Below, piece after piece: positions 17,645 through 54,526 of a stretch of DNA of 64,000 nt. The position numbers and the translations under genes are program-made. Within the stretch, counting starts at the first letter, position 1. Every line of letters begins with the position of its first letter. The notes below the pieces were generated by a model. It worked only from the letters and a program-made list of their open reading frames with translations, ran no database searches and was not told the origin of the DNA. This stretch comes from Podarcis cretensis (Eukaryota): contig OX638155.1 of NCBI GenBank assembly GCA_951804945.1, positions 5,518,001 to 5,582,000 on the forward strand, in the 5' to 3' direction.

Positions 17645-17686
17645 TGCAGTTCTCTGTCTAAACCTCGTAGTGTCACTGTTAGCCAA
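17645..17686 (+). promoter_or_regulatory. CSE / CTCF site of V4 promoter
   Basis: tgcagttctctgtctaaacctcgtagtgtcactgttagccaa (42 bp, CACT core). Confidence 0.82.
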
Positions 17687-17917
17687 TCTAGATGCATATC
17701 CACAGATACTTCCTATACTGTGATACCTCAAAGCAACTGCACAGATAATGGAAACAGCAGAGCACAAAGGAAGGACAGTCTAGCTGAGAAACTGAAAATA
17801 CTACTGGTTTAAATACAATAAGAAAAAGCGAGATTATTCTATCTAACGGGTTTGTCTCTTGTTCTGCTGAGAAACCTGTTCAAAACAAGCTGGAAAAGTA
17901 TTTTATCAGAAAACAGA

Positions 17918-20340
17918 ATGGACAGAAGGCAGAAAGAGGATGTCAAGGCACTCAGAAGGCAAGTACTGCTTCTCTTATTTTTGCCTTTCTCCTGCTGGGC
18001 TGCCTCAGAACAGATTCGCTATTCTATCCCTGAGGAGATGGCAAAGGGTTCGATTGTGGGGAATCTGGCCAAGGATTTGGGACTGAATGCCAGAGATCTA
18101 GGAAGGCGCAATCTGCATGCTGTCTCTGTGAATAAAATGCAGTATTTCAATATCAATGCAGAAAATGGAAACCTCTATGTAAATGATAGGATTGATAGAG
18201 AGGAAATATGTGACAAAACTCCACTCTGCCTGGTTAATTTTGAGGTGGTGATTGAAAATCCCTTAAATGTTTTCCATATAACTGTGGAAATTCAGGATAT
18301 TAATGACAATACTCCACATTTTTTGAAAATTAATATCAACTTAGAGATTGTGGAATCCACTTTGCCAGGCACCAGATTTCTCCTTGGGAAAGCTGAAGAT
18401 CCTGACATAGGGATGAATTCGCTCCAGAATTACCAGCTGAGCTCTAATAAATATTTGACTTTGGATGTTAAGGACACTTATGATGGAAATAAATTTGCAG
18501 ATTTAGTGCTGCAGAAACCATTAGATCGAGAGACCGAACAGACCCTTCACTTGATTCTCACAGCGTTGGATGGGGGTGAACCTAGAAAAACTGGGACTGC
18601 CCAGATATGGATTAATGTCACAGATGCCAATGACAACCCACCTGTTTTCACTCAAGAGGTGTACAAGGTCAGTTTGAGGGAAAGTGTTGCAGTTGGATCG
18701 CTTGTGCTCCGGGTTACAGCATCTGATAATGATGAAGGTTCAAATGCCCAAATCAGGTACCATTTTAGCAATATACCACTGAATGCCAACAAGAAATTCA
18801 GTCTAGATCCTTTGAATGGCTCAATCCTACTTATAGGGCTACTGGATTTTGAGGAAACCAAAGAATACACTTTGACAGTTGCAGCAAAAGATGGGGGTGG
18901 GTTAGAGACACATTGTAAAGTTGAAATAAGAGTTATTGATGAGAATGACAATTACCCCGAGGTAACCCTGGTTTCCTTGTTTAGCCCAGTCTCTGAAGAT
19001 ACTCTGCCTGGTACCTTAATAGCTCTGATCAATTTGAATGACAAAGATAGTGGAGATAATGGAAAGGTCACTTGCTATTTACAGGATGATTTGCCCTTCA
19101 GAATTCTTCCCTCATCTAACAATTACTACAAGCTCCTGACAGATAGTCCACTTGACAGAGAAATAACTCTAGAGTACAATATCTCAGTAACAGCCTCTGA
19201 CAATGGCACTCCCCCTCTCTCCTCACATAAATCTATCACACTTTTGATTGCTGATATCAATGATAATGCCCCTACCTTTCAGAAGCCATCCTACAACATC
19301 TATGTGCCAGAAAACAATCCTTCAGGTGTCTCCATTTTCACCATCAAAGCCTCTGATCCTGACATGGACCAGAACTCACGGATCACATACTCCATCCTCA
19401 ACAGCAACATTGAGGAGCTTCCCATCTCCTCCTATATCTCCATTAATTCAGAGACTGGCACCATCTATGCCCAGAGATCCTTTGACTATGAACAATTCCG
19501 AGATTTCCATCTTCAAGTGAAGGCCCAAGATGGGGGTTCTCCCCCTCTCAGCAGCAATGTGAGCGTCAGGGTGTTTGTTCTTGACAGGAATGATAACAGC
19601 CCTCGTATCCTGTCCCCCTCACAAGAAGCCAAGGGCTCAGCCTTGTTTGAGATGGTGCCTCGTTCGGCCGGGGCAGATTATCTTGTCACCAAGGTGGTGG
19701 CCGTGGATGCAGATTCTGGACACAACGCCTGGCTCTCCTACCACCTCACTCAGGCCACTGAGCCGGCACTCTTCACGGTTGGTTCTCATACTGGAGAGAT
19801 CAGGATAGCCAGGCCCTTTGTGGAGAGAGAGATGCTGTGAAACAGAGACTGGTCATTATGGTGAAGGATAACGGGCAGCCGTCTCTCTCGGCCACCATGA
19901 CTCTGAACCTGGTGTTTGCTGAGAACTTTCAGGAGGCCCTTCCGGAAATGAAGAGCCAACCCAGCAGCTCGGAGTATCAGTCTGACCTGCAGTTCTACTT
20001 GGTGCTGGCCTTAGCTGTGATCTCCTTCTTGTTCCTCTTGACTGTCATTCTGGCCGTTACAATGAAGCTCCGTCAATCAGGGCATCCCAGGTTCCTACAG
20101 TGCTTTGGTCCTGTTCCCCATTCCAAGAATGGTGCCATCTTCCCACCCAACTTTGAAGATGGGACTTTGCCCTATTCCTACCAGCTGTGTCTGTCTTCTG
20201 AGTCCAGGAAGAATGAGTTTGCCTTCCTGACACCCAATGTCCAGATGGCAGACAATATTCTTAGCGGCGAGAAATCTGATGTTCCTTTCACAGGGAGAAG
20301 TGAAAGCAATTTGCATTTGGACAAAGTTAATAATGACAAG
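17918..20340 (+). pseudogene. PCDHGB: Frameshifted protocadherin gamma B-like variable exon V4 (subfamily X)
   Basis: ATG at 17918 (MDRRQKED, matching paralog starts). GTGGAGAGAGAGATG has (GA)5 where paralogs have (GA)4, giving TGA at 19838-19840 within EC6. The rest of EC6, TM and tail continue in another frame (ORF 19837-20391) to donor AAG|GTAAAT at 20340/20341. A consensus error cannot be excluded. Confidence 0.8.
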
Positions 20341-21268
20341 GTAAATTTTCTTTTCAAAAATTATTTGTGCTGTATTTTCAATAATTTTTAACCATAACTA
20401 TAATGGAAATATTAATTGTTTACATGTAGCTTACTCTAGCTGCTATATACCTTTCAGCAATTGGCGATTAAGAGGCTGTAGAATATTCTTCATTTTAGGT
20501 TGCTCTCAGAAAGTGCAACACTTGTCGTTGATTTTAATCTAAGATTATTTTGTAGCCAAGTTTGCTATATCAACAACTTATTTTCTTTTTCTTTTTGTAG
20601 AGCGAAACTTATATTAGTTAACAAAATTAAATGGTGCCAGACAATCACCATTATAATTATGTCACATGTTAGGGCTATAGTGCTAAATTATAATTTGGTC
20701 AAATCTCGGCCAAATCAAACAAGCAAGGACCAGAGGCAGAAGGTCTCCTAGATGGGTTGCAGATAAAGGAACAAGAGCTAAGGATGGAAGACAAGTTATA
20801 TGTTCATGGACAGGCTGGTGGGCAGATATATCTCTTAGGCTAAGCCTGACCTTATTCTCATTCTCATTGAAGGACTGCAGGTAAAGAAACCTGCAGCATT
20901 CTTAGTAGCTGGAAATACATTACTAATCCATGTGCGTCTAGCAAGTCTACCTAAATACTTATGGTAAGAAGTTGACAGAATAACATAGCTCAGGTTTCTT
21001 AAATTCACTCACCACTAGCACTTCATAAATGTTGCAGTAAGCAGATACATATGCCAAAGTAACTAGATACATAGTCCCTAAAGGTCACTGACTGACAAAA
21101 AGATATGGGGAACATTGGCAGGAAGCTGTCAATAAACACATATCTGTAAGTGTGTGTCAAACAGATACTCTACATGCAAATCAACCAGATTTAACTGAAT
21201 GTCATACGTACATCTGTAGCAAATCAAAGATTCATGATGTGTAACATCTGGAATAGTTCTGAAAAGTA

Positions 21269-21714
21269 CAGGTGTCTCCCTCCACTTACACAGGGTTTAT
21301 GTTCTTGACCCCTGCAGGCATAACTGAAATCGCATAAAGTGTCCCCCCCCCCTCCAAACACCCTACTGTATCCGAAAGTATCCACAACTAGAATTGAAGT
21401 TATGGGGCTGGCAGGAGGCTGCAGGATGCATGGGAAAGCGGCTGCTGCTGCGCTATCCCACACATCAGCTGTTAGGCAAGGAAGCTGAGCAGCCTAAACA
21501 AAGCCTCTCTGTGCCTCTAGTCTCTTCTGGGCTTCCTGTGCCCTCATTGCCATCCTCTTTGGGCTCCAGGGAGGGTTTTCTTGCAAGTCACGTGGACATT
21601 TCAGCTCTCTTCTGGCATTTCCAGGTTTGAATTGAATTATTTAATTGTTTCCCAAAACCACACATATACATAGTTGAGTGCAGGTCGATATCACGTAAAT
21701 GGGGGGGGGGCCTG
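21269..21714. mobile_element. Tc1/mariner (Tigger-like) MITE, degraded
   Basis: TA|caggtgtctccctccacttac ... gtaaatggggggggggcctg|TA: imperfect TIRs with TA target duplication. Confidence 0.6.
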
Positions 21715-22436: not shown

Positions 22437-24839
22437 ATGGAAGATAGGCAGAAGGAAAACAGCAGATCAGTAAGAAGGCAAGTACCTCTCCTCTTACTAT
22501 TCTCTCTGTGTGGTCAGATTGCCTCAGAGCACATTCATTATTCCATCCCTGAAGAAATGGAAAAGGGATCCATTGTGGGAAACCTAGCCAAAGACCTGAG
22601 ATTGAATAACAGAGAAATAGGAAATGGCAATCTGCATATCCTTTCCCTAGGTAAAAAGCAATATTTCACTCTCAGTGCAGAAAATGGGAATTTGTATGTA
22701 AGGGAGAGGATTGATAGAGAGGAATTATGTGGTCAAACTGCAATCTGCTCCATCAATTTTGAAGTGGTGCTTGACAGCCCTATGAATATTTTTCATATAA
22801 CTGTAGAGATCCAAGACATTAATGATAATGCACCATATTTTGTAAAAGGGGATATCAAGCTGGAGATAAGTGAATCCTCTTTAAAAGGCACCACATTTCT
22901 CCTTGGACAAGCTGAAGATCCTGATCTTGGGGTGAATTCTCTCCAGAATTACAACCTTAGCACAAATCAGTATTTTATTCTGGAAGTGAGAGAAAGAAAG
23001 GATGGAAAGAAATATGCAGAATTAGTATTGAATAAACAGTTAGATCGGGAAAGTGAAGGCAGTTTCCAATTAATCCTTACGGCGCTGGATGGAGGGAAGC
23101 CTGCCAAAACTGGAACAACCAAAATTTGGATCACCGTCATTGATGCAAATGACAACCCACCAGTCTTCACTCAAAAAGTATACACAGTCAAGCTGAAAGA
23201 AAATGCCCCCAAAGGGTCTTCAGTGGTCCAGGTGAAAGCCACAGATAGAGATAAAGGTTCTTACGCTCAAATCAGCTATAATTTTAGTAACATCCCTGAA
23301 ATTGCTCAACAGAAATTCTACTTGGATCCACAGGAAGGGACAATAACACTTAAAGAGGCTCTGGACTTTGAGGAAATAGAAGAATATGCAATGGCAGTGG
23401 AAGCAAGAGATGGGGGAGGATTAGTCGCTCAATGCAATGTTGAAATTTCACTCCTAGATGAGAATGACAATGCCCCAGAAGTGATTCTTGCCTCTTTATC
23501 CAGCCCAATCCCTGAAGACTCTGCAGTAGGAACCCTGGTAGCCCTTATCAATGTAAATGATAGAGACTCTGGAGATAATGGGAAGACTGCTTGTGATATA
23601 CAACACAATTTGCCATTCAAGATGGTATCAGCCTCCAATAATTATTATAAGCTTCTCACAGACGCCCCCTTGGACAGAGAAAGAACTCCAGAGTACAATA
23701 TCACAGTCACAGCCACAGACAAAGGCAACCCTCCTCTTTCCACATACAAAACCATCACACTGCAGATCTCAGACATCAATGACAACTGCCCTGCCTTTGA
23801 GAAACCCTATTATACTGCCTATGTCCCAGAGAACAATCCTTCAGGCTCCTCCATTTTCAGGGTCAAAGCCTCTGACCCAGATGTGGACCAGAATGCTCAA
23901 ATCACCTACTCTATTCGCAACAGCATCACTGAGGGGTTGCCTCTCTCGTCCTTCCTCTCCATTAATTCTGAGACTGGCACTATCTATGCTCAGCGCTCCT
24001 TTGACTATGAGCAAGTCAAGGAGTTTCAAGTGGAGATGAGGGCCGAAGATGGAGGCTCCCCCCGCCTCAGCAGCAATGCCACCATGAGAGTGTGCATTCT
24101 GGACCAGAATGACCAAAGCCCTCAGATTCTTTATCCTTCTCAAGGAGTAGAGGGCTCCTCCTTGTTTGAGATGGTGCCTCGCTCAGCAGAGGAGGGTTAT
24201 CTGGTGACCAAGGTGGTGGCTGTGGATGCTGACTCTGGACACAACGCTTGGCTCTCCTACTATCTGCTCCAGGCAACAGAACCTGGGCTGTTCTCCATTG
24301 GTTCCCATACTGGGGAGATCAGGACCTCACGGGCTTTTTTGGAAAGAGATGCTGTGAAGCAGAAGCTCATCATCTTAGTCAAGGATAATGGGCAGCCACC
24401 ACTATCCGCTACCGTGAGTCTCAACCTGGTGTTTGCTGAGAACTTCCAGGAGGCACTTCCGGAAATTAGCCACCAGCCCAGTGACTCCGAGTATCAATCT
24501 GATCTACAGTTCTTCTTGGTGCTGGCCTTAGCTTTGATTTCATTCTTATTCCTCCTGACAGTGATTCTGGCCATTCTCATGAAGATTCGGCGATCAGGGA
24601 ACCCCAAATTCCTGCAGTGTTTTGCTCCTGTTCCCCATTCAAACAACACAGTCATTTTCCCACCAAACTATGAAGAAGGAACATTGCCATATTCGTATCA
24701 GCTGTGCTTATCTTCTGAGTCCAGGGTACAGGAGTTCACCTTTCCAACACCCAATGTTCAAACCGCAGATAAGTCTAATGTGACTTTGACTGCCAATGGA
24801 GGCAATATCCTAAATTCTGAGATGGATAATGCTGATATG
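22437..24839 (+). CDS. PCDHGB: Protocadherin gamma B-like variable exon V5 (subfamily Y, 801 codons to donor)
   Basis: Six EC repeats plus TM, gammaB motifs. Donor ATG|GTGAGT at 24839/24840. Confidence 0.93.
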
Positions 24840-25554
24840 GTGAGTTTATTTTCAGCGGTACATGGTTAACATTTTAAGCAGTCTCTTTATGTCTATAGGC
24901 AACTAGTATGTTTTAAGCTGATTTATCTGAGTTTTTTCATATAAACATTCAGTTCACATGAAGATGGGGCAGCTACCCCCTCTGCTTGAACCTCACAGGT
25001 GTACTTGAAGCTCAATGTCTGTACAGAACATGCTGTACAGGTGTTCTCAAATAGGCCTTTTCTTTGTCATCAGAAATCTTGCAAATGGAAGGGTCTATTG
25101 GTATGTGTACAGGCCTATTTGTAGATGTTCAGATCTTCAACTGAAATTGTGGAGATGAGTAAGATCTTTCTTCATCCCCTCAACACATTCATCGGATGTG
25201 GATGTGGCATAAAGAAAATGCTATGTATGCCGTCTAACCTTTATCTAATTTATCATTACTTCATTTTACTGATGAACTTCTGTTCTTCCACTTCATACCT
25301 TTAATGAAAAATGTGTTTGATAGAGATGAGGAGTGGGATGAGAGAGGGGGAGGAATGGCAGGGAGAGAGACAGAGAGAGAAAGATGTACCTTATACCATC
25401 AGAAAGCTGTATATTTTGTTCTGCTTTAGGGCAGTGAAAATTAGAGGGAAGGGTCCCAACTGCATGGCTTAATTTTAGAATAAAATGTTTCAGGAAATAC
25501 CTAAAATGATTCACCAAAGGTAGAACCAGCTTTAATAGTACTTTTATGTTTCTA

Positions 25555-28768: not shown

Positions 28769-28810
28769 TGCAGTTCTCTGTCTGAGCCTCAGGATGTCAG
28801 TGTCAGCCAG
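28769..28810 (+). promoter_or_regulatory. Degenerate CSE / CTCF site of V6 promoter
   Basis: tgcagttctctgtctgagcctcaggatgtcagtgtcagccag: correct position, 42-bp length and TGCAG module, but the core reads ATGTCAGTGTCAGCC instead of GTGYCRCTGTTRRCC. Confidence 0.7.
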
Positions 28811-29057
28811 TGTGGAAGCCACAGAGAAGATGCAGGAGACCCCGGATAGTTTTCTAGAAAGGGATTGTTTCACCATTTCTGTACAGTAACAGCAGATCAC
28901 AACAACCAAGCAATCTTGCTGGAAAGGACAGTAAAAAATTAAGAAGGAACTAGGCAGAAATCCAGCTTAGTCTTTGTTGTGGAGATTCCTTGTGATCAGA
29001 TGATAATTTGATCATTACAAGCTGAAAAAAGGAGACAGCTGTTTCTCAGGGATCTGT

Positions 29058-31478
29058 ATGGATAGAAGAAACAAAAACAATGGAATGGCACTCAGAAGGC
29101 AAGTACTGCTTCTCTTATTTTTGCCTTTCTCCGGCTGGGCTGCCTCAGAGCAGATTCGTTATTCTATCCTTGAGGAGATGGCAAAGGGTTCGGTTGTGGG
29201 GAATCTCGCCAAGGATTTGGGACTGAATGCCAGAGATCTAGGAAGGCGCAATCTGCATGCTGTCTCTGTGAACAAAATGCAGTATTTCAGTATAAGTGCA
29301 GAAAATGGAAATCTCTATGTAAATGACAGGATTGACAGAGAGGAAATATGTGGCACAACTCCACTCTGTCTTGTTAATTTTGAGGTGGTAATGGAAAATC
29401 CCCTTAATATTTTTCATGTGACTATTACAATTCAAGATATAAATGACAATGCGCCATTCTTTCTCAGTGGCAATATCAACTTAGAAACAAGCGAACTAAC
29501 TTTGTTAGGAACACGGTTTTTCCTTGGGAAAGCTGAAGATCCTGACATTGGGATGAATGCTCTCCAGAATTACCACCTTAGCTCGAATCAGTATTTTACT
29601 CTGGATGTTAAAGAGACTCATGATGGAAATAAATTTGCAGATTTAGTGCTGCAGAAAGCACTAGATCGAGAGACTGAACAGACCCTTCACTTGATTCTCA
29701 CAGCGTTGGATGGGGGTGAACCTAGAAAAACTGGGACTGCCCAGATATGGATTAATGTCACAGATGCCAATGACAACCCACCTGTTTTCACTCAAGAGGT
29801 GTACAAGGTCAGTTTGAGGGAAAGTGTTGCAGTTGGATCGCTTGTGCTCCGGGTTACAGCATCTGATAATGATGAAGGTTCATACGCCCAAATCAGGTAT
29901 TATTTTAGTAATATACCACAGAATGCCAACAGGAAATTCAGTCTAGATCCATTGAATGGCTTAATCCTACTTATAGGGTTATTGGACTTTGAGGATATCA
30001 GTGAATACACTATATCAGTAGCAGCCAAAGATGGTGGTGGATTAGTGACACATTGCAAAGTTGAAATAAGCGTTCGTGATGAGAATGATAATGCCCCAGA
30101 GGTTACTTTAGCCTCCATGTTTAGCCCAGTTCCGGAAGATTCTATGTCAGGAACAGTCATTGCTCTGGTCAATGTAAATGACAGAGATAGTGGAGATAAT
30201 GGAAAAGTTACTTGCTACCTACAAGATGATTTACCCTTCAAAGTTCTTCCGTCATCTAACAATTACTTCAAGCTCCAGACAGACAGTCTCCTGGACAGAG
30301 AAAAAACTCCTGCATACAATATTACAATCACAGCAATTGATAAAGGAACTCCACCTCTTTCCACACACAAAACAATCTCACTACAGATCTCAGATATCAA
30401 TGACAATGCCCCTACATTTCAGAAATCATCCTACAACATCTACGTGCCAGAAAACAATCCTTCAGGTGCCTCCATTTTCACCATCAAAGCTTCTGATCCA
30501 GATACGGATCAGAACTCAAGGATCACATACTCCATCCTCAACAGCAACATCGAGGAGCTTCCCATCTCCTCCTATATCTCCATTAATTCAGAGACCGGCA
30601 CCATCTATGCCCAGAGATCCTTTGACTATGAACAATTCCGAGAGTTCCATCTTCAAGTGAAGGCCCAAGATGGGGGTTCTCCCCCTCTCAGCAGCAATGT
30701 GAGCGTCAGGGTGTTTGTTCTTGACAGGAATGATAACAGCCCTCATATCCTGTCCCCCTCACAAGAAGCCAAGGGCTCAGCCTTGTTTGAGATGGTGCCT
30801 CGTTCAGCTGAGGCAGATTATCTTGTCACCAAGGTGGTGGCCGTGGATGCAGATTCTGGACACAACGCCTGGCTCTCCTACCACCTGACTCAGGCCACTG
30901 AGCCGGCACTCTTCACAGTTGGTTTTCATACTGGAGAGATCAGGACAGCCAGGGCCTTTGTGGAGAGAGATGCTGTGAAACAGAAACTGGTCATTATGGT
31001 GAAGGATAATGGGCAGCCATCTCTCTCGGCCACCATTACTCTGAACCTGGTGTTTGCTGAGAACTTTCAGGAGGCCCTTCCGGAAATGAAGAGCCAACCC
31101 AGCAGCCCGGAGTATCAGTCTGACCTGCAGTTCTACTTGGTGCTGGCCTTAGCTGTGATCTCCTTCTTGTTCCTCTTGACTGTGATTCTGGCCGTTACAG
31201 TGAAGCTCCGTCAATCAGGGCATCCCAGGTTCCTACAGTGCTTTGGTCCTGTTCCCCATTCCAAGAATGGTGCCATCTTCCCACCCAACTTTGAAGATGG
31301 GACTTTGCCCTATTCCTACCAGCTGTGTCTGTCTTCTGAGTCCAGGAAGAATGAGTTTACCTTCCTGACACCCAATGTTCAGATGGTAGACAATATTCTT
31401 GGCAGTGAGAAACCTGCTGTGCCTTTTACAGGCAACGGAGAAAATAATTGTCAAGCTGAGATGAATAAAGATGAAGAG
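29058..31478 (+). CDS. PCDHGB: Protocadherin gamma B-like variable exon V6 (subfamily X, 807 codons to donor)
   Basis: Six EC repeats plus TM. Donor GAG|GTAAGA at 31478/31479. The last 66 aa of the 873-aa ORF are intronic read-through. Confidence 0.92.
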
Positions 31479-34474: not shown

Positions 34475-36895
34475 ATGGAAGACAGGCGGAAGGAAAACAG
34501 CAGATCAGTAAGAAGGCAAGTACCTCTCCTCCTATTATTCTCTCTGTGTGGTCAGATTGCCTCAGAGCACATTCATTATTCCATCCCTGAAGAAATGGAA
34601 AAGGGATCCATTGTGGGAAACCTAGCCAAAGACCTGAGCCTGAATAATGGAAAAATAGGAAATGATAATCTGCGTATCCTTTCCCTAGGTAAAAAGCAAT
34701 ACTTCACTCTCAGTACAGAAAATGGAAATCTGTATGTAAGGGAGAGGATTGATAGAGAGGAATTATGTGGGCAAACTGCATTCTGCTCCATCAATTTTGA
34801 AGTGGTGGTTGAGAGTCCTATGAATATTTTTCATATAACTGTAGAGATCCAAGACATTAATGATCATGCACCACATTTTGTAAATGGGGATATCAAGCTG
34901 GAGATAAGTGAATTGTCTTTACAAGGCACCACATTTCTCCTTGGACAAGCTGAAGATCCTGATCTTGGGGTGAATTCTCTCCAGGATTACAACCTTAGCA
35001 CAAATCCATACTTTATTCTGGAAGTGAGAGAAAGAAAGGATGGAAATAAATATGCAGAATTAGTATTGAATAAACAGTTAGATCGGGAAAGTGAGAGCAG
35101 TTTCCAATTAATCCTTACGGCGCTGGATGGAGGGAAGCCTGCCAAAACTGGAACAGCCAAAATTTGGATAACCGTCATTGATGCAAATGACAACCCACCA
35201 GTCTTCACTCAAAAAGTATACGCGGTCAAGCTGAAAGAAAATGCCCCCAAAGGGTCATCAGTGGTCCAGGTGAAAGCCACAGATAGAGATGATGGTTCAA
35301 ATGCCCAGATAAACTATAGTTTTAGTAACATCCCAAAAATCGCTCACCAGAAATTCTACTTGGATCCACAAGATGGGACAATTATAGTTAAGGAGGTTCT
35401 GGACTTTGAGGAAACAGAAGGATATGTAATGGCAGTGGAAGCAAGAGATGGGGGAGGATTAGTAGCTCAATGCAATGTTGAAATAACACTCCTAGATGAG
35501 AATGACAATGCACCGGAAGTGATTCTTGCCTCTTTATCCAGCCCCATCCCTGAAGACTCTGCAGTAGGAACCCTGGTAGCCCTTATCAATGTAAATGATA
35601 GAGACTCTGGAGACAATGGAAAGATTACTTGTGACATACAACACACTTTGCCATTCAAAATGGTATCAGCCTCCAATAATTATTATAAGCTTCTTACAGA
35701 CGCCCCCTTGGACAGAGAAAGAACTCCAGAGTACAATATCACAGTCACAGCCGCAGACAAAGGCAACCCTCCTCTTTCCACATACAAAACCATCACACTG
35801 CAGATCTCAGACATCAATGACAATTGCCCCGTCTTTGAGAAACCCTATTATACTGCCTATGTCCCAGAGAATAACCCTTCAGGCTCCTCCATTTTCAGGG
35901 TCAAAGCCTCCGACCCAGATGTGGACCAGAATGCTCAAATCACCTACTCCATTCGCAACAGCATCACTGAGGGGCTGCCTCTCTCATCCTTCCTCTCCAT
36001 TAATTCTGAGACTGGCACTATCTATGCTCAGCGCTCCTTTGACTATGAGCAAGTCAGGGAGTTTCAAGTGGAGGTGAGGGCCGAAGATGGAGGCTCCCCC
36101 TGCCTCAGCAGCAATGCCACCGTGAGAGTGTGTATTCTGGACCAGAATGACCAAAGCCCTCAGATTCTTTACCCTTCTCAAGGAGTAGAGGGCTCCTCCT
36201 TGTTTGAGATGGTGCCTCGCTCAGCAGAGGAGGGTTATCTGGTGACCAAGGTGGTGGCTGTGGATGCTGACTCTGGACACAACGCTTGGCTCTCCTACTA
36301 TCTGCTCCAGGCAACAGAACCTGGGCTGTTCTCCATTGGTTCCCATACTGGGGAGATCAGGACCTCACGGGCTTTTCTGGAAAGAGATGCTGTGAAGCAG
36401 AAGCTCATCATCTTAGTCAAGGATAATGGACAGCCACCACTATCTGCTACTGTGAGTCTCAATCTGGTGTTTGCTGAGAACTTCCAGGAGGCACTTCCGG
36501 AACTTAGCCACCAGCCCAGTGACTCCGAGTATCAATCGGATCTGCAGTTCTTCTTGGTGCTGGCCTTAGCTTTGATCTCCTTCTTATTCCTCCTGACAGT
36601 AATTCTGGCCATTCTCATGAAGATTCGGCGATCAGGGAACCCCCAATTCCTGCAGTGTTTTGCTCCTGTTCCCCATTCAAACAACACGGTCATTTTCCCA
36701 CCAAACTATGAAGAAGGAACATTGCCATATTCGTATCAGCTGTGCTTATCTTCTGAGTCCAGGGTACAGGAGTTCACCTTTCCAACACCCAATCTTCAAA
36801 CTGCAGGGAATGTTTCATGCAACACTCAGTCTGATGCACCTTTGACTGTCAATGGAGGTAATATCCTAATTTCTGAGATGGATAGAACTGCTATG
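34475..36895 (+). CDS. PCDHGB: Protocadherin gamma B-like variable exon V7 (subfamily Y, 807 codons to donor)
   Basis: Six EC repeats plus TM. Donor ATG|GTGAGT at 36895/36896. Confidence 0.93.
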
Positions 36896-37555
36896 GTGAG
36901 TTGTTTTTTTCAACAGAACATGGTGAACAGATTCTGCATTCCATGCATATCAATAGAGTACTAATATATTTTAAGCTCACTCATCTTGGAAAGTTTTCTT
37001 TTGAGCAGTATCTGCTGCTACACAATTGGTGCATTTTTTTTTTACTGAAATTGAATATTTGAAAGTATATTATAATAATCAGTTTACTCTTTCATCTCCG
37101 TATATACAGGTAATATAGTTTAATTAATTATTTCATTCCCTCTTATTCCCTTTTAGATATTTGTATTCACTTTACCCTCTTTCCCTAATCATGATCTTCA
37201 TGAATTCAGCTGAATGTCCCTATAGAACCAACACAATGCTGCAAATGGTGGGGTCTCTTGGCATATGTAAGGGACGAGGTGTATGCAATTTGTAAGTTTG
37301 CAAACTTGCTTCAGAACTTTAGCTGAAATTTTGGAGGTCTTTACTGAATTTTTTTTGTGCTTTTAATGTTACAGAGTAACAAGCAGGGTCTGGTTTCAGC
37401 CAGCTTTTTCCATAATATCCCATTCCTCCTCCTCCCCTGTTTTATATTTTTCTCCTGCAACAGGCATTGAGCATTGTGTTTCTACTGAGCATGCTCTGCT
37501 GTCTTTGGTCAGTTTGGGTTTCACCTTCTCTTGTTTTTTTGTACTTCTGTAAAAC

Positions 37556-40923: not shown

Positions 40924-43344
40924 ATGGACAGAAGACACGACGACAATGGCAGAGCATTCAGAAGGCAAGTACTGCTTCTCTTACTTTTGTCGCCTTCCTG
41001 CTGGGCTGCCTCAGAGCAGATTCGTTATTCTATCCCTGAGGAGATGGCAAAGGGTTCGATTGTGGGGAATCTGGCCAAGGATTTGGGACTGAATACAAGA
41101 GATCTTGCAAAGCGCAATCTGCATGCGGTCTCTGTGAACAAAATGCAGTATTTCAGTATTAATGCAGAGAATGGAAACCTCTATGTAAGTGACAGAATAG
41201 ATAGGGAGCAGCTATGTGACATAACTCCCATTTGCGTAGTAAATTTTGAGGTGGTAGTTGAAAATCCCCTCAATATCTTCCATTTAACTATAGCAATTCA
41301 GGACATTAATGATAATGCACCACTGTTTCCCAATGACAACATCAACTTGGAGACAAGTGAACTTACTGTACCAGGTGCACGATTTCTCCTTGGGAAAGCT
41401 GAAGATCCTGACATTGGCATGAATTCCCTCCAGAATTACCAGTTGAGCACCAATCGGTACTTCACTTTGGAAGTTAGAGAAATGGAAGATGGAAGTAAAA
41501 ATGCAGAACTGGTGTTGCAGAAATCTTTGGATCGGGAAAGTGAGCACTCTCTTCACTTGATCCTTACAGCCTTGGATGGGGGTGAACCCAGAAAAACGGG
41601 GACTGCCCAGATATGGATTAATGTCACAGATGCCAATGACAACCCACCAGTTTTCACTCAAGAAGTGTACAAGGTCAGTGTGCATGAAGAAGCTCCTGTT
41701 GGGTCCTTTGTGCTCCAAGTTGTAGCCTCTGACAAAGATGATGGTTTAAACGCCCAGATCAGATATGAATTCAGCAACATTCCAGTGAATGGACAAAAGA
41801 AATTTGGCCTGGATCCAGTTGATGGCATAATCTCCCTTCTGCAGATGTTGGATTTTGAGGAAACAAGAAGATATACTATGACAGCAGCAGCAAAGGATGG
41901 AGGTGGATTGGTGACACACTGCAACATTGAAATAAATGTTCTTGATGGGAATGATAATGCCCCAGAAGTGACGTTAGCCTCCATGTTCAGCCCTGTTCCT
42001 GAGGATTCTCTGCCGGGAACTGTCATTGCTCTGATCAATGTAAATGACAAAGATAGTGGAGATAATGGAAAAGTTACTTGCTACTTACAAGATGATTTAC
42101 CCTTCAAAATTCTTCCCTCATCTAACAATTACTTCAAGCTCCAGACAGACAGTCTCCTGGACAGAGAAATAGCTCCTGCGTATAATATTACAATCACAGC
42201 CACTGACAGAGGAACTCCACCTCTTTCCACACACAAAATAATCTCACTACAGATCTCAGATATCAATGATAATGCCCCTACATTTCAGAGATCAACCTAC
42301 AGCATCTATGTGCCAGAAAACAATCCTTCAGGTGCCTCCATTTTCACCATCAAAGCCTCTGATTCTGACATGGATCAGAACTCACGGATCACATACTCCA
42401 TCCTCAACAGCAACATCGAGGAGCTTCCCATCTCCTCCTATATCTCCATTAATTCAGAGACCGGCACCATCTATGCCCAGAGATCCTTTGACTATGAACA
42501 ATTCCGAGAGTTCCATCTTCAAGTGAAGGCCCAAGATGGGGGTTCTCCCCCTCTCAGCAGCAATGTGAGCGTCAGGGTGTTTGTTCTTGACAGGAATGAT
42601 AACAGCCCTCGTATCCTGTCCCCCTCACAAGAAGCCAAGGGCTCAGCCTTGTTTGAGATGGTGCCTCGTTCGGCCGAGGCAGATTATCTTGTCACCAAGG
42701 TGGTGGCCGTGGATGCAGATTCTGGACACAACGCCTGGCTCTCCTACCACCTGACTCAGGCCACTGAGCCGGCACTCTTCACGGTTGGTTCTCATACTGG
42801 AGAGATCAGGACAGCCAGGGCCTTTGTGGAGAGAGACGCTGTGAAACAGAGACTGGTCATTATGGTGAAGGATAACGGGCAGCCGTCTCTCTCGGCCACT
42901 ATTACTCTGAACCTGGTGTTTGCTGAGAACTTTCAGGAGGCCCTTCCGGAAATGAAGAGCCAACCCAGCAGCTTGGAGTATCAGTCTGACCTGCAGTTCT
43001 ACTTGGTGCTGGCCTTAGCTGTGATCTCCTTCTTGTTCCTCTTGACTGTCATTCTGGCTGTTACAATGAAGCTCCGTCAATCAGGGCATCCCAGGTTCCT
43101 ACAGTGCTTTGGTCCTGTTCCCCATTCCAAGAATGGTGCCATCTTCCCACCCAACTTTGAAGATGGGACTTTGCCCTATTCCTACCAGCTGTGTCTGTCT
43201 TCTGAGACCAGGAAGAATGAGTTTGCCTTCCTGACACCCAATGTACAGATGGTAGACAATATTGTTAGCGGTGAGAAACCTGATCTGCCTTTTACAGGCA
43301 ACAGTGGAAACAATTTTCAGTCTGAAAAGGCTAAGGATGAAGAG
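40924..43344 (+). CDS. PCDHGB: Protocadherin gamma B-like variable exon V8 (subfamily X, 807 codons to donor)
   Basis: Six EC repeats plus TM. Donor GAG|GTAAGC at 43344/43345. Confidence 0.93.
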
Positions 43345-46794: not shown

Positions 46795-49209
46795 ATGGCC
46801 GGCAGACAGAAAGATAGCAGCAGATCCCTACGAAGGCAAGTACCTCTCCTCCTATTATTCTCTCTGTGTGGTCAGATTGCCTCAGAGAACATTCATTATT
46901 CCATCCCTGAGGAAATGGAAAAGGGCTCCATTGTGGGAAACTTAGCTAAAGACCTGAGCCTGAATAATGGAGAAATAGGAAATTACAATCTGCATATCCT
47001 TTCCCTAGGTAAAAAGCAATACTTCACTCTCAGTACAGAAAATGGAAATCTGTATGTAAGGGAGAGGATTGATAGAGAGGAATTATGTGGGCAAACTGCA
47101 TTCTGCTCCATCAATTTTGAAGTGGTGGTTGAGAGTCCTATGAATATTTTTCATATAACTGTAGAGATCCAAGACATTAATGATCATGCACCACATTTTG
47201 TAAATGGGGATATCAAGCTGGAGATAAGTGAATTGTCTTTACAAGGCGCCACATTTCTCCTTGGACAAGCTGAAGATCCTGATCTTGGGGTGAATTCTCT
47301 GCAGAATTACCACCTTAGCACAAATCCATACTTTATTCTGGAAGTGAGAGAAATAGAAGGCGAAAAGAAATATGCAGAATTAGTGTTGAATAAACAGTTA
47401 GATCGGGAAAGTGAAAGCAGTTTCCAATTAATCCTTACGGCGCTGGATGGAGGGAAGCCTGCCAAAACTGGAACAGCCAAAATATGGATCTCCGTCATTG
47501 ATGCAAATGACAACCCACCAGTCTTCACTCAAAAAGTATATACAGTCAAGCTCAAAGAAAATGCCCCCAAAGGGTCTTCAGTGGTCCAGGTGAAAGCCAC
47601 AGATAGAGATGATGGTTCAAATGCCCAGATAAACTATAGTTTTAGTAACATCCCAGAAAGTGCTCGTCAGAAGTTCCACTTGAGTTCACAAGATGGAACA
47701 ATCATAGTTAAGGAGGTTCTGGACTTTGAGGAAACAGACGGATATGTAATGGCAGTGGAAGCAAGAGATGGAGGTGGATTAGTGGCTCACTGTAAAGTTC
47801 AAATAACACTCCTAGATGAGAATGACAATGCCCCAGAAGTGATTCTGGCCTCTTTATCCAGCCCAATCCCTGAAGACTCTGCAGTAGGAACCCTGGTAGC
47901 CCTTATCAATGTAAATGATAGAGACTCTGGAGACAATGGAAAGATTGCTTGTGACATACAACACACTTTGCCATTCAAAATGGTATCAGCCTCCAATAAT
48001 TATTATAAGCTTCTCACAGATGCCCCCTTGGACAGAGAAAGAACTCCAGAGTACAATATCACAGTCACAGCCACAGACAAAGGCAACCCTCCTCTTTCCA
48101 CATACAAAACCATCACACTGCAGATCTCAGACATCAATGACAATTGCCCTGTCTTTGAGAAACCCTATTATACTGCCTATGTCCCAGAGAATAACCCTTC
48201 AGGCTCCTCCATTTTCAGGGTCAAAGCCTCTGACCCAGATGTGGACCAGAATGCTCAAATCACCTACTCCATTCGCAACAGCATCACTGAGGGGCTGCCT
48301 CTCTCATCCTTCCTCTCCATTAATTCTGAGACTGGCACTATCTATGCTCAGCGCTCCTTTGACTATGAGCAAGTTAGGGAGTTTCAAGTGGAGGTGAGGG
48401 CCGAAGATGGAGGCTCCCCCCGCCTCAGCAGCAATGCCACCATGAGAGTGTGTATTCTGGACCAGAATGACCAAAGCCCTCAGATTCTTTACCCTTCTCA
48501 AGGAGTAGAGGGCTCCTCCTTGTTTGAGATGGTGCCTCGCTCAGCAGAGGAGGGTTATCTGGTGACCAAGGTGGTGGCTGTGGATGCTGACTCTGGACAC
48601 AACGCTTGGCTCTCCTACTATCTGCTCCAGGCAACAGAACCTGGGCTGTTCTCCATTGGTTCCCATACTGGGGAGATCAGGACCTCACGGGCTTTTCTGG
48701 AAAGAGATGCTGTGAAGCAGAAGCTCATCATCTTAGTCAAGGATAATGGGCAGCCACCACTATCCGCTACCGTGAGTCTCAACCTGGTGTTTGCTGAGAA
48801 CTTCCAGGAGGCACTTCCGGAAATTAGCCATCAGCCCAGTGACTCCGAGTATCAATCGGATCTGCAGTTCTTCTTGGTGCTGGCCTTAGCTTTGATTTCA
48901 TTCTTATTCCTCCTGACAGTGATTCTGGCCGTTCTCATGAAGATTCGGCGATCAGGGAACCCCAAATTCCTGCAGTGTTTTGCTCCTGTTCCCCATTCAA
49001 ACAACACAGTCATTTTCCCACCAAACTATGAAGAAGGAACATTGCCGTATTCCTATCAGCTATGTTTATCATCTGAGTCCAGGGTACAGGAGTTCACCTT
49101 TCCAACTCCCAATGTTCAAACTGCAGAGAATATTTCAAGCAACACTGATGCACCTTTGACTGCCAATGGAGGCAATATCCTAATTTCTGAGATGGATAGA
49201 ACTGATATG
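46795..49209 (+). CDS. PCDHGB: Protocadherin gamma B-like variable exon V9 (subfamily Y, 805 codons to donor)
   Basis: Six EC repeats plus TM. Donor ATG|GTGAGT at 49209/49210. Confidence 0.93.
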
Positions 49210-49434
49210 GTGAGTTTTAATCTGAGCAGTATCTACATTATACATTCTTGCTGCTTAGAGAATGGAATTTTTTATGAATCTTTGTTGCTGATTCCGTAAT
49301 CTTTTTTTATACAACTAATATATTTTAATTTATTGTTTTTCAACCTACCTTTAGCCAACTAATTGGTTCATCTTGATTGAGTATTCTTTCAAGTCTGATT
49401 GGTTCATAAACTGTTGGAATTGGTTCTTTTAATG

Positions 49435-49475: not shown

Positions 49476-49477
<2 letters not shown>

Positions 49478-51134
49478 CATTTTACTGGAAAATAACTATG
49501 TGTTTTCTGTTTTTGTGTGTTTATGAAAATGTGTTGAGTGGAGGAGACATTTTCCAGGAGAAATCAGGCCAAGGTGTTTTCCTGTAGTTCTTTGGGGCAA
49601 AATAAAATGAAAGGGGCTTTGGTAATCTTAAAATTATGAACATGTGGGGCCTTAGAATGAAATCGCTAATTGGATGTTATGAAAGAGAAAACATCTGATA
49701 TATTTCTCCCATAGTATCAGTAATTTCCAGAGAGTACTTTAAGTATTTAGAACATGTTCACATACATTATCTTAGTCTGTAGTCTGAAATGTATTTAGTT
49801 TTAAACATTTTTATCTGCCTTTCAACTGCAAGAGCAAGCCTGTCAAGTGTGGTCCCAAGTTTTGTCAGAGGCTGCAAGTCAGAGTTCTAAAGCTGCCTAG
49901 TAAATTTGTAACTGAAGAACTAGGAATCTCACAGCTCACACTTCAGCCCCTATATGAATTCTAGTGTATCTTAATTTGGATAGCCATTGGCAAAACCAAT
50001 TTTGAAAGGCCAGAAAAGAATAATTTAAATTAAGAAAAATGTAAAAGTAAAGTAGGGCTACCAACACAAAGGTATATACATCCCATGTCCAGAGAGAACA
50101 CAATAGTGCAAAACTATTTGCTGTTTTGAAAAGCCTCTGCCTGGTTATTTTATTTATGATTTATGGCTATGCCCTCAAAGCAGCTTGCAATTTAAAAGTC
50201 TAAAAATGCAAAAAAAGAGCCCTCAGTGAAATCATATGAATCAGTTCATTAAGATAACAATAATACTGATAATGTTGTTGTTGATGATGATAGTACTTAA
50301 ATAACGAATAACCTGTCCATAATGTTCTTAATAGCTTCTGACATCAGACAATAACGTCCACATCCTATATGCAGTATCCACACATTACAAATGAACAAAA
50401 TGAAAGTGAACAAAATAGATGAATACATGGAAGTTTGTCATATAAAATCTTGACTATAGCTTACAGAAACTGAAAGAAACCAAAAACCTTCAATGAGGTA
50501 TAACAGTATAATAATTCTCTTCTAAGCAATGGCTTCATTTCTTCCTGAAATTAGTTTGAGTCTTATACTTTTTGCAGTGGCTCCTCTCTTGGAACTGTGG
50601 ATCCCAGAATAAAAGTGCAAGACACATAAATGGGATAAACTAAAGCCACAACATTGTTAGCGACTGATCTGTGTCTTCCGCCCCTACTTAGTTGTCTTAC
50701 CTTCTGAACCTCCAGTGAGGAGTTCTCTTCCACTTAGATGAGACTTTAAGAAACCATCTCCTGCTGCCTCCCTTTGACCTGAAGAGCAAGAGTATAATAT
50801 GTGTTCTTGGCTTTTTATTGCCCTTATATATTAACATTTTGTTGCTAGTGTCACCCACCTCCAGGCCAGACAGCAGGCTAGCACATGCAAGCAGGCCTCA
50901 AGATACTCTCAGTCCTGGATCTCCTTTAATCAGTGACCCTTCAATGAATGGTTTGGGGAAACGTCTTTTCACTACCTTGATTTCTCAGTGTGTTCACCAG
51001 CCTACTCTCTGCACTCTGCCCTGATCCTGCCTGTTCTACTACCTAGTTAGGACCTAAGTACCTTGACAAAGCAAGATTGTTAACTTGCCACTCCCAACTT
51101 GGAAGTAGATAAAAATTGCCCCGTCAGAGAGCCT

Positions 51135-51137
<3 letters not shown>

Positions 51138-51177
<40 letters not shown>
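51138..51177. repeat. (TAA)n microsatellite
   Basis: Directly visible. Confidence 0.95.
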
Positions 51178-51492
51178 CCTACATAGCCCCAGCAGGGACC
51201 GATCATGCCTGTAAGATCTTCAGAAAGAGTGGGAGAGCACAAGTGCTGCCAGCTGCATAGGGATTCCCTTCATTGGCTGGAATGGGACATCTTTGGAGTC
51301 CTTTTGGAGAATTCTTCTCCCTCACTCGTCAAGCCTTTCTCCTAAGAAAGGAGTGGGAAAGTTCTGCAAGAGATCTGTGGTTGGGGGGAAATTGTTTTTA
51401 TGTTTTGACATTATCATGGAAATATACTAAACTTCCCAAGATTTTTTTAAGTGGAAACAGGAGATTAAATATATATATATAACCTGAGATGA

Positions 51493-51538
51493 CAATGTTG
51501 AGACTGTTGAGATTCCAATGTTGAGACTGTTGAGATTC
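51493..51538. repeat. Perfect 23-bp tandem duplication
   Basis: caatgttgagactgttgagattc x2. Confidence 0.9.
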
Positions 51539-51820
51539 TGGCGCTCAGGATTGTAACTTTGATAATATTATTTCCAAGATTCCACGAAAAGAATCCTTTG
51601 TTACATTGCAAGCCATTTACCCAGGCAAATGGAAAGGTTTGAAGTGTTATTGATTCCAAAACCAAAACAAAGATTCCCAAATATTCAGCTCAAGTCAAAA
51701 TTCAATAGAAATAGCTCCTGTGTAAACTTCCAATTGCATGTTTTCCCTACTGTATAAAACTATAATTACGTTGCATCCACGTTGCATTTTCTCTTAAATT
51801 GAAAGGTTGAAAACATCCCT

Positions 51821-51862
51821 TGCAGTTCTCCTGCTGAACCTCACAGTGCCGCTGTTGGCCAA
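51821..51862 (+). promoter_or_regulatory. CSE / CTCF site of V10 promoter
   Basis: tgcagttctcctgctgaacctcacagtgccgctgttggccaa (42 bp, CGCT core). Confidence 0.88.
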
Positions 51863-52105
51863 TCTAGTAGCCATACAGTGATGGAAATACACTGATCCTT
51901 TCTACAGCGAGCTTACTTCTTTAGTGCTGTGCAGATCAGGGAACAGAGAGAAGGCATTGCTGCTGACATAAAGAAAATACAAAAATGATTTTTACAAATT
52001 AAAGAGAAAGACAGATTATTCTTTTTTATGGAGACTTAGTGCATACTGGTGAAAATTTGATCTGGTTCTTAAAAAAAGGAAACAGCTGATTTTTCACAGA
52101 GCCAA

Positions 52106-54526
52106 ATGGAGAGAAGACACAAGAAGAATGGCAGGGCACTCACAAGGCAAGTACAGCTTCTCTTAATATTCTTGCCCTCCTGCTGGGCTGCTTCAGAGCA
52201 GATTCATTATTCAATTCCTGAGGAAATGGCTAAGGGTTCAGTTGTGGGGAATATTGCCAAGGATTTGGGACTAAATGCCAGAGAACTAGGGAAACGCAAC
52301 ATGCATGCTGTCTCAGTGGATGAAATGAAATATTTCACTATGAATGCAGAGAATGGAAACCTCTATGTAAATGACAGGATAGACCGGGAGGGAATATGTG
52401 GCAAAAATCCCCTTTGCTTTATTAATTTTGAGATGGTAATTGAAAGCCCCTTGAATATTTTCCATATAACAATAGCAATCCAGGACATTAATGATAATGC
52501 ACCACAGTTTTTCAATGGAAAAATCAACTTGGAGACAAGTGAGTTCACTGTACCAGGAACACGATTTCTCATTGGAGAAGCTGAAGATCCTGACATTGGG
52601 ACAAATTCTCTTCAGAATTACCATCTCAGCCCCAATCCATATTTCAGCCTTGATGTTAAAGAGAGTCAGGATGGAAATAAATTTGCAGACTTGGTGCTTC
52701 AGAAACCACTAGATCGGGAAAGTGAACAGACAATTCACTTGATCCTCACAGCCTTGGATGGGGGTGAACCTAGGAAGACTGGAACTGCTCAGATATGGAT
52801 TAATGTCACAGATGCTAATGACAACCCACCTATCTTCACTCAAGAGGTTTACAAGGTCAGTCTGAAGGAAAATGCTGCTGTTGGCTCCCTTGTGCTCCAG
52901 ATTTTAGCCTCTGATAAAGATGAAGGTACAAATGCCAAAATTAGTTACCACTTCAGCAACATACAAAAAAGTGCTCAACAGAAATTCAACTTGCATTCTG
53001 GTAATGGCACAATCACTCTTACGAGCCCATTAGACTTTGAGGAAACCAGAGAATATACTATGACAGTCGCAGCAAAAGATGGAGGTGGATTAGTAACACA
53101 CTGTAAAGTAGAAATACAGATTATTGATGAGAATGACAATTTCCCAGAGGTAACTCTGGTTTCCTTATTTAGTCCAGTCCCAGAAGATTCTGTGTCTGGA
53201 ACCTTAATTGCTCTGATCAATGTAAAAGACAAAGACACTGGTGAGAATGGAAAGGTTAGTTGTTATTTGAAAAACGATCAGCCCTTCAAGATTGTTCCCT
53301 CATCTAACAATTACTTCAAACTCCTGACAGACAGCCCTTTGGACAGAGAAAAAACTCCTGCATATAATATTATAATCACAGCCACTGACAATGGAACTCC
53401 CCCACTGAAGACCCATAAAGTCATCTTACTACAGATATCTGATATCAATGATAATGCCCCTTCCTTTGAGAAATCTTTGTATGCTATCTATGTGCCAGAA
53501 AACAATCCTTCAGGTGCCTCCATTTTCACCATCAAAGCCTCTGATTCTGACATGGACCAGAACTCACGGATCACATACTCCATCCTCAACAGCAACATTG
53601 AGGAGCTTCCCATCTCCTCCTATATCTCCATTAATTCAGAGACCGGCACCATCTATGCCCAGAGATCCTTTGACTATGAACAATTCAGAGAGTTCCAGCT
53701 GCAAGTGAAGGCCCAAGATGGGGGTTCTCCCCCTCTCAGCAGCAATGTGAGCGTCAGGGTGTTTGTTCTTGACAGGAATGATAACAGCCCTCGTATCCTG
53801 TCCCCCTCACAAGAAGCCAAGGGCTCAGCCTTGTTTGAGATGGTGCCTCGTTCGGCCGAGGCAGATTATCTTGTCACCAAGGTGGTGGCCGTGGATGCAG
53901 ATTCTGGACACAATGCCTGGCTCTCCTACCACCTGACTCAGGCCACTGAGCCGGCACTCTTCACAGTTGGTTCTCATACTGGAGAGATCAGGACAGCCAG
54001 GGCCTTTGTGGAGAGAGACGCTGTGAAACAGAGACTGATCATTATGGTGAAGGATAACGGGCAGCCGTCTCTCTCGGCCACCATGACTCTGAACCTGGTG
54101 TTTGCTGAGAACTTTCAGGAGGCCCTTCCAGAAATGAAGAGCCAACCCAGCAGCTTGGAGTATCAGTCTGACCTGCAGTTCTACTTGGTGCTGGCCTTAG
54201 CTGTGATCTCCTTCTTGTTCCTCTTGACTGTGATTCTGGCCGTTACAATGAAGCTGCGTCAGTCAGGGCATCCCAGGTTCCTACAGTGCTTTGGTCCTGT
54301 TCCCCATTCCAAGAATGGTGCCATCTTCCCACCCAACTTTGAAGATGGGACTTTGCCCTATTCCTACCAGCTGTGTCTGTCTTCTGAGACCAGGAAGAAT
54401 GAGTTTGCCTTCCTGACACCCAGTGTTCAGATGGTAGACAATATTGTTAGCAGTGAGAAACCTAGTGTTCCTTTTACAGGCAATGAAGGAAACAATTTAC
54501 ATCCTGAGATGGAGAATATTGACAAG
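52106..54526 (+). CDS. PCDHGB: Protocadherin gamma B-like variable exon V10 (subfamily X, 807 codons to donor)
   Basis: Six EC repeats plus TM. Donor AAG|GTAAAA at 54526/54527, positionally identical to paralogs. Confidence 0.92.

Follow-up and report, generated by a model that had tools for sequence, protein, structure and literature searches.

Clustered protocadherins and the V4/V6 question

This locus raises the question of whether gene conversion between neighbouring protocadherin exons moves parts of the EC1-EC4 recognition region from one paralog to another, and whether such movement changes the recognition code. The window (the whole stretch of 64,000 nucleotides that was analysed) is part of a lacertid clustered protocadherin gamma cluster, where 55 full-length variable-exon matches were found within 464 kb as a tandem array. 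The form is that of clustered Pcdh gamma variable exons, namely a single exon of ~2.4 kb carrying a signal, six EC repeats, a TM and a tail, with a splice donor at its end, and orthologues are annotated as 941-aa isoforms with PF15974. Exons of subfamily X end in GT donors, carry EC linker motifs and measure 2421 nt each, V4 (2423 nt) excepted, and a conserved promoter core lies upstream of all eight. The main features were as follows.

17645..17694, + strand: V4 promoter core, which we take to be the conserved sequence element
17918..20340, + strand: variable exon of V4, a member of the Pcdh gamma-b-like subfamily X, with an EC6 frameshift in the assembly; it likely donated the older patch
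19820..19840, + strand: V4 GA run with 2 extra nt; the frame terminates at the stop at 19838-19840
28769..28818, + strand: V6 promoter core
29058..31478, + strand: intact variable exon of V6, which likely received the internal patch
40924..43344, + strand: V8 variable exon, subfamily X
52106..54526, + strand: variable exon of V10 (subfamily X), which shares its late EC4 with X17, a paralog outside the window

The variable exons of V4 and V6 lie 11 kb apart and are 84% identical over EC1-EC4; over the same domains V6 is 75% identical to Anolis gamma b4. The E41-K338/R340 salt bridge defines the mammalian gamma-B subfamily (PMC5106212); V4 and V6 have N372 and N374 at the latter positions and were therefore classed as gamma-b-like only. 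The 2-nt insertion in the GA run of V4 (~19823), overlooked in the initial annotation, shifts the EC6 frame, and in this haplotype V4 could be a pseudogene.

The 207-nt tract

The perfect identity of about 207 nt that had been claimed for V4 and V6 at the EC2/EC3 junction was confirmed at 207/207 nt, with a mismatch at either edge. The shared EC1 segment was also recovered, as a common motif with an identical 65-nt run; paralog X13, outside the window, is equally close to V6 in EC1 (69-nt run).

18068..18132, + strand: V4, EC1 run of 65 nt that matches V6 29208-29272 exactly
18236..18382, + strand: V4, EC1 end and first part of EC2 (aa107-155), unconverted, 71% nt identity to V6
18536..18742, + strand: V4, 207-nt tract, aa207-275 (EC2 end, linker, EC3 start)
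29676..29882, + strand: V6, 207-nt tract; includes G29851 (R265) and A29861, letters that V6 and V4 have in common in this assembly and in organism A alone

When the 173 V4/V6 mismatches were placed at random in the 1263 nt of EC1-EC4, a gap of at least 207 nt arose in 0 of 100,000 placements, the maximum being 104. Permutation gave p=0.0001 for 532 polymorphic sites and p=0.0002 for 144 synonymous sites, or 0.003 and 0.006 after Bonferroni correction for 28 pairs. Local identity thus exceeds chance, synonymous sites included, as is looked for in gene conversion. GC3, which conversion can raise, was 0.41 in the tract, the same level as in EC2, and was raised only in EC5-EC6; an increase is expected only where conversion has long been repeated. 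No tandem repeats were found in or adjoining the tract. Because the non-coding flanks of V4 and V6 are only 55% alike upstream and 48% alike around and past the donor, and no intergenic homology between the two was found, recent duplication is excluded. The first half of EC2 remains lineage-specific.

The short-read contigs compared here come from relatives, and their depths are noisy. In three of four runs (X5, X10 and run X13) a contig of roughly double depth stops at 29881-29882 and then forks into V4-type and V6-type paths. Positions 18711/29851 and 18721/29861 read A and T on every contig from organisms B, C, D and F (6 of the 8 runs) and match the assembly (G/A) in the two runs from organism A. 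Residue 265 is Q in the V6 orthologues of P. raffonei and Zootoca, which makes the R265 of both V4 and V6 a derived state. Both genes therefore carry the same lineage-specific substitutions, a hallmark of gene conversion seen here across the 8 runs and against Q265 in orthologues, and conversion was later than the split of close relatives. Between 29883 and 29979 eight sites distinguish V4 from V6 in run X5; at six of these, all contigs of run X4 had V4 letters, and hence conversion sometimes extends to contact regions.

The older patch

The tract is continued on its 3' side by a shoulder of lower identity.

18743..18853, + strand: V4, older converted shoulder (aa276-312) that includes the EC3 Phe-X10-Phe loop, 89% nt identity to V6
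29883..29993, + strand: V6, older converted shoulder (aa276-312), which has since diverged again from V4 at aa276, 282, 288, 292 and 302

Protein trees were built with the orthologues P0038 and P0042 of the amphisbaenian Rhineura included. Outside the patch V6 paired with P0038 (96/94) and V4 with P0042 (97/96), and a lacertid V4+V6 clade was rejected (AU 0.013). Inside aa207-313 the lacertid V4+V6 clade received 100/97 and V6+P0038 was rejected (AU 0.002), so that the tree of the tract contradicts that of its flanks, as gene conversion predicts. Sites of orthologous versus concerted pattern stood at 14:0 in aa107-206 plus 314-400 and at 0:5 in aa207-312 (Fisher p=9e-5). Judged by the amphisbaenian orthologues, V4 and V6 are old lineages, and aa207-313 was homogenised in lacertids, probably in the direction V4 to V6. 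This direction is moderately supported, by 15 versus 6 sites (binomial p=0.08) and by a tree support of 84/91 for a clade that includes P0057 too. A lacertid V4 orthologue protein was not found among the 120 matches listed and 33 listed cluster members, one cluster being covered for 15 of its 23 members.

EC4, donors and promoters

The initial annotation had paired V4 with V10, and V6 with V8, by promoter, EC4 start and donor. The donors (GACAAG/GTAAA in V4 and V10) read as given. The pairing of V4 with V10 held in part: they are mutual nearest neighbours around the EC3 end and EC4 start only (83-86% nt), where a V4+V10 clade received 88/92 in aa325-375, a segment picked after seeing the data. 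The grouping is valid for ~50 codons only. As an EC4 lineage pair V4/V10 was rejected for the whole EC4 (AU p=0.003) and for aa376-451, and in the run test none of the 28 pairs ranked below it; the EC4 synonymous distance is 0.48, against 0.45-0.54 for the other EC4 pairs of V4. Four of the residues shared by V4 and V10, namely L354, L367, L407 and P411, occur in V7 and V11 too and look ancestral. A V4+V6 grouping was not rejected for the whole EC4 (AU 0.127) or for aa376-451 (0.175).

29994..30410, + strand: V6, EC3 end and EC4; EC4 type as in V8, X13, X15 and X20; 79% nt identity to V4

The markers held to be specific to V6 and V8 are common to up to 5 of 8 paralogs, the EC4 type recurring in X13, X15 and X20 and the GAAGAG/GTAAG donor in X13, X15 and X17. 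Nor are the promoters pair-specific: the core differs at 13 of 52 columns between V4 and V10, 14 between V4 and V6, and 13 between V8 and V10, and over the 400 nt upstream the exons V4, V6, V8 and V10 are 52-61% alike. Promoter pairing gave no signal except for a V6/V8/X13 group.

What survives of the earlier proposal, that conversion recombines EC1-3 of one lineage with EC4 of another, is conversion inside EC1-EC4 with discordant segment trees, so that the domains do not share one topology; the EC1-3/EC4 join and the split of V4/V10 from V6/V8 fell away. The unit moved is a sub-domain patch with breakpoints inside domains. The discordance of EC4 is mainly due to homogenisation of that domain among V6, V8, X13, X15 and X20, extending the known 3' gradient.

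Interface positions

The interface list was partial, consisting of 26 positions named in the text of papers, of which three are gamma-A numbers mapped with gamma-B offsets. Two of the 26 fall inside the perfect tract, both invariant in all eight paralogs; V4 and V6 differ at four, all outside it. The recent tract alters no mapped published interface position, so that new identity codes made by the patches would be hypothetical; the older shoulder contains the published EC3 Phe-X10-Phe specificity loop. A single-sequence AlphaFold model of V6 EC1-4 was unusable (pLDDT 33.5), and strand positions consequently rest on motifs and literature. Recent copying likely misses the contact surfaces; new recognition codes may nevertheless arise. 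Mouse beta6 and beta8, 92% identical, do not cross-bind (PMC8901172), and the 84% of V4/V6 over EC1-EC4 is lower.

Alternative and preferred explanations

Overwriting of one gene with the other's sequence by assembly collapse or polishing would suit a perfect tract, and is extremely improbable: the relatives' short-read contigs fork independently at the same 3' edge, which also rules out collapse as the source of the 207-nt identity, and the V6 proteins of P. raffonei and Zootoca have an early EC3 of V4 type. Hardly more credible are V4 and V6 as recent sister duplicates whose EC2-start and EC4 differences arose later, through conversion by other paralogs or fast divergence. DNA trees of this genome's paralogs do give a V4+V6 clade (EC2 94/90, EC3 99/99, aa107-206 92/88), but the flanks are unrelated, EC4 synonymous divergence is 0.54, the derived R265 in both genes requires conversion anyway, and the separate Rhineura orthologue of each gene outside the patch largely refutes this origin.

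It is rather doubtful that conversion generates new specificities, with part of the EC2:EC3 contact surface placed in a new partner context and a chimeric V6 whose homophilic identity would be unlike that of both parents. The older patch spans the Phe-X10-Phe loop, which is rich in isoform-specific residues in gamma isoforms according to PMC5001838. Zootoca V6 keeps the V4 loop letter-for-letter at aa283 to 293, Podarcis V6 having re-diverged at aa288 and 292; Lacerta agilis P0076 resembles X17 in EC2 and early EC3, and X20 from ~aa288 onwards; and late EC4 of X17 orthologues differs between species. Engineered chimeras can alter specificity (10.1101/493106, citing Rubinstein 2015). However, V4, V6 and the V6 orthologue of Rhineura have identical residues at the named interface positions in or close to the patch (238, 248, 285, 318, 328, 332, 334) and also at 289. 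Across lacertids the EC2 and EC3 of most orthologues remain their own (90-100%), and P0076 rests on a single annotation. An equally tentative extension would have the lacertid gamma-b-like EC2:EC3 surface shuffled as sub-domain cassettes, the EC3 BC-loop/C-strand/Phe-X10-Phe patch moving between pre-lacertid paralogs, re-diverging and yielding new homophilic identities that differ among wall-lizard species.

Repeated non-allelic gene conversion between the old paralogs V4 and V6 is the probable source of the 207-nt patch, recent events likely homogenising the scaffold while the isoforms likely keep separate binding identities. An older event in the lacertid stem would have copied ~aa207-312, the EC3 Phe-X10-Phe loop included, from the V4 lineage into V6. 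The identity so restored would then have seeded more short conversions, whose ends vary from one wall-lizard lineage to another. The first half of EC2 and the end of EC3 still differ between V4 and V6. Lasting V4/V6 identity may be tolerated because the stretch sits between the EC2 and EC3 contact patches. Homogenisation of EC4 in the five paralogs would be a separate process.

Comparison with known systems

Regional gene conversion is already known from the clustered protocadherins of vertebrates (Noonan et al. 2004, as cited in later papers; fugu PMC1852091; Xenopus PMC4978886). The latter two describe EC2 and EC3 as spared: conversion is something that these domains "seldom undergo" or "appear not to be subject of". 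As in those systems, tandem-array paralogs are homogenised with a strong 3' gradient and a boundary into EC4; EC5-EC6 synonymous distances in the lizard cluster are 0.02-0.22 and GC3 is ~0.6 versus 0.4. Unlike in the fugu and Xenopus accounts, lizard conversion is recent, repeated, across the EC2/EC3 junction and between old paralogs. The squamate gamma-b expansion resembles Anolis carolinensis Pcdh gamma-b4-23 (PMC2764143), although that paper reports little conversion, from domain-averaged dS, which would miss pairwise internal patches. No earlier report of EC2-EC3 conversion in lacertids appeared in the search listings of the non-subscription literature. In clustered protocadherins EC2-EC3 have been regarded as free of conversion and used as a phylogenetic marker; since conversion has taken place there both recently and earlier, trees from EC1-EC3 can be misleading for squamates.

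The best solved relatives of V4 and V6 are mammalian Pcdh gamma-B (PDB 6e6b, 5t9t, 5k8r, 5szo), which share six EC repeats, a TM and a short tail in one variable exon, so that an EC1:EC4 and EC2:EC3 dimer is expected; unlike them, V4 and V6 have N, N for K338, R340 and a 2-residue EC1 insertion near E41. Natural chimeras bear on how new strictly homophilic isoforms arise without non-binding intermediate states. If cassettes are shuffled, the Rhineura, Zootoca, Podarcis and Lacerta series would offer ready-made intermediates of a self-recognition code gaining words; if the patches are neutral for binding, they would still be a clear example of conversion restricted to non-contact sequence. MHC alleles are likewise segmental conversion mosaics, made of short copied patches in recognition proteins. 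In trypanosome VSG, too, short patches between paralogs yield recognition-protein mosaics (PMC8787164). In contrast to both, nothing in V4/V6 conversion points to a programmed or somatic mechanism; it is germline and of low frequency.

Protocadherin variable exons

Eleven protocadherin variable exons were found in the window (contig positions 5518001–5582000), all on the + strand. The closest proteins were those of Podarcis raffonei (97%) and Zootoca vivipara (94%), which marks the animal as a lacertid, probably Podarcis; the best solved-structure relatives were mouse and human gamma-B isoforms. A scan of 200 kb either side of the window brought the gamma-b-like subfamily X to eight members: V4, V6, V8, V10 and the downstream paralogs X13, X15, X17 and X20. 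Only four of the eight had been visible to the initial annotation, which accounts for some of its pairings. In subfamily X, the residues that form the salt bridge of mammalian gamma-B are substituted (N372, N374), and a loop of EC1 carries a 2-residue insertion, so EC1:EC4 chemistry may differ in squamate gamma-b-like isoforms. A repeat of ~350 bp, with two copies between V5 and V6 and one between V6 and V7 (83–91% alike among copies and to one downstream), is probably a short interspersed element.

The V4/V6 tract and the EC4 pairings

The 207-nt identity claimed between V4 (18536–18742) and V6 (29676–29882) proved exact on direct comparison. In V6 numbering, used throughout, it spans aa207–275, from the end of EC2 across the linker into the start of EC3. 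It covers 80 consecutive polymorphic sites (p=0.0001, Bonferroni 0.003), with agreement over 32 consecutive synonymous-only sites (p=0.0002); Bonferroni correction left 7 of 28 pairs significant on all sites and 2 on synonymous sites; in the run test V4-V10 came last of the 28. When mismatches were placed at random, a gap this long arose in 0 of 100,000 trials. The V4/V6 identity profile along the exon placed breakpoints within domains: 93% at aa31–106, 71% at aa107–155, 90% at aa156–206, 100% at aa207–275, 89% at aa276–312, 79% at aa313–451 and 96% at aa452–670.

The proposed EC4 pairing of V4 with V10 held only in aa325–375, a segment picked post hoc (tree support 88/92; V4+V6 rejected there by AU test, p=0.009); over the whole of EC4, V10 pairs with X17 instead (100/99), and the V4+V10 pairing was for that reason rejected (p=0.003). 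Counter to our own reading, V4+V6 was not rejected over whole EC4 (p=0.127). Nor do V6 and V8 form the exclusive pair suggested, since EC4 is homogenised across V6, V8, X13, X15 and X20. Synonymous distances in EC4 were 0.14–0.28 among these five and 0.39–0.54 in 17 of the remaining 18 pairs, the exception being V10-X17 (0.28); the five-member clade (85/94 in EC4) was rejected in each of EC1, EC2 and EC3 (p<0.001 for all three). Promoter cores, also thought to link V4 with V10, showed nothing special for that pair.

Short-read contigs

Contigs of eight public runs under five organism labels (A, runs X1, X5; B, X2, X4; C, X6, X10; D, X7; F, X13) were placed on V4 and V6. An assembly artefact was rejected as the source of the tract, as contigs branch at the same 3' edge in runs X5, X10 and X13: in each, one contig of about double depth stops at 29881–29882 and continues as V4-type and V6-type branches. 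Run X4 was without this contig edge. At 18711/29851 and 18721/29861, every placed contig of runs X2, X4, X6, X7, X10 and X13 (B, C, D, F) had A and T, while runs X1 and X5 (organism A) had the assembly letters. The G at 18711/29851 encodes R265; Q265 is found in the other six X paralogs and in the V6 orthologues of P. raffonei and Zootoca. For a derived letter to be shared by both genes within one lineage yet absent from both in its relatives, V4 and V6 must have exchanged sequence after these lineages split.

The 5' edge, judged at 18518/29658 and 18521/29661, varied among runs: V6-type only in X1, X5 and X6, V4-type only in X10 and X13, and both types in X2, X4 and X7, the state also seen in the assembly. 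The variation points to several conversion events and to V6 as the source in one or more of them; for any individual event the direction is tentative, since contigs lose rare variants and their depth is noisy.

An insertion of 2 nt within a GA run (19820–19840) truncates the V4 frame in EC6. No contig carrying it was among those listed in four related runs, and all placed depth of run X7 was without it; it is either a private (null) allele or an assembly error. A variable exon that lies upstream, ~137 kb from the window start (locus L027), has an in-frame stop at about codon 478 and is likely a pseudogene.

Age and direction

V4 and V6 show no relationship in their non-coding flanks. Amphisbaenians and lacertids split >100 million years ago, and the amphisbaenian Rhineura floridana has separate orthologues: in a protein tree of 18 rows selected from squamate matches, V6 grouped with its protein P0038 and V4 with P0042 outside the patch. 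Inside aa207–313, lacertid V4 and V6 united (100/97), nearer the V4-type Rhineura proteins (84/91, the clade including P0057). Site patterns concurred (14:0 outside the patch versus 0:5 inside, p=9e-5), and direction from V4 to V6 was favoured at 15:6 sites (p=0.08). The V4-type early EC3 is already present in Zootoca V6, which nonetheless differs from Podarcis V6 at aa207, 210, 232, 243 and 265; from this we infer an older lacertid conversion event and later ones in Podarcis.

Rhineura P0057 is V10-like in EC1-EC2 and goes with V4-type proteins in early EC3. P0076 of Lacerta agilis switches inside EC3, resembling X17 as far as about aa287 and X20 from there on. Both are possibly independent EC3 conversions.

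Other mosaics in the cluster

An identical run of at least 100 nt overlapping EC2-EC3 occurred in 8 of the 1176 pairs formed by 49 alternate exons. A distant-paralog pair upstream shares 158 identical nt at aa212–264, the same EC2/EC3 junction, a possible recurring conversion hotspot. Exons concerned in these and the following comparisons are:

~161 and ~147 kb upstream of the window start (L024-L026), the 158-nt pair
starts ~81.3, 92.7 and 111.8 kb from the window start (L002-L005), X15, X17 and X20
22437–24869, + strand, V5
34475–36964, + strand, V7
46795–49299, + strand, V9

X15, X17 and X20 have promoter (91–93%), signal peptide and EC1 in common and are diverged in EC2-EC4, a likeness best read as a 5' conversion tract including a promoter element. 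V10 and X17 have late EC4 in common, and X13 and X20 aa335–364.

V5, V7 and V9 are 87–99% alike in every domain, and the V5/V7 upstream match is 299/~320 nt. As the X genes interleaved among them are old, with unrelated flanks, this suggests whole-exon and promoter conversion, not block duplication. V7 34675–34927 and V9 46995–47247 form a 253-nt identical run from late EC1 to the EC2 start, longer than the V4/V6 tract.

Recognition code

Twenty-six interface positions, drawn from the text of PMC5106212, PMC5001838 and 10.1101/493106, were mapped via alignments to solved gamma-B relatives. Two of the 26 lie in the perfect tract, both invariant across all eight paralogs, a count that fuller lists may alter. 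V4 and V6 differ at four other interface positions (118, 155, 188, 352) and, in the EC3 beta6-beta7 loop, at aa330; over EC1-EC4 as a whole, 68 of 421 residues differ. The two isoforms therefore likely stay distinct. That conversion patches here yield a new identity code, as initially proposed, we regard as unlikely. What keeps the idea alive is the older shoulder, aa276–312, which contains the Phe-X10-Phe loop; Zootoca V6 has the V4-type form of this loop, and Podarcis V6 a re-diverged one. The reading we hold to be probable is that a patch lying mostly outside contact regions was converted repeatedly between the two old paralogs. The effect of an EC4 swap alone is uncertain because PMC5001838 assigns EC1:EC4 to affinity more than specificity and PMC5106212 distributes specificity over all four domains.

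Comparison with known conversion

Gene conversion is an established process in clustered protocadherins, acting mainly at the 3' part, as the initial annotation held (PMC1852091). EC2-EC3 is portrayed as seldom or not converted (PMC1852091, PMC4978886) and as positively selected (PMC7811963), and low conversion is reported for the anole cluster (PMC2764143). Among the papers listed by searches of the open literature, none reported EC2-EC3 conversion in lacertids; tracts of this kind in further species may be documented in Noonan 2004. The V4/V6 tract is a real feature, probably made by a known process in an unusual place.
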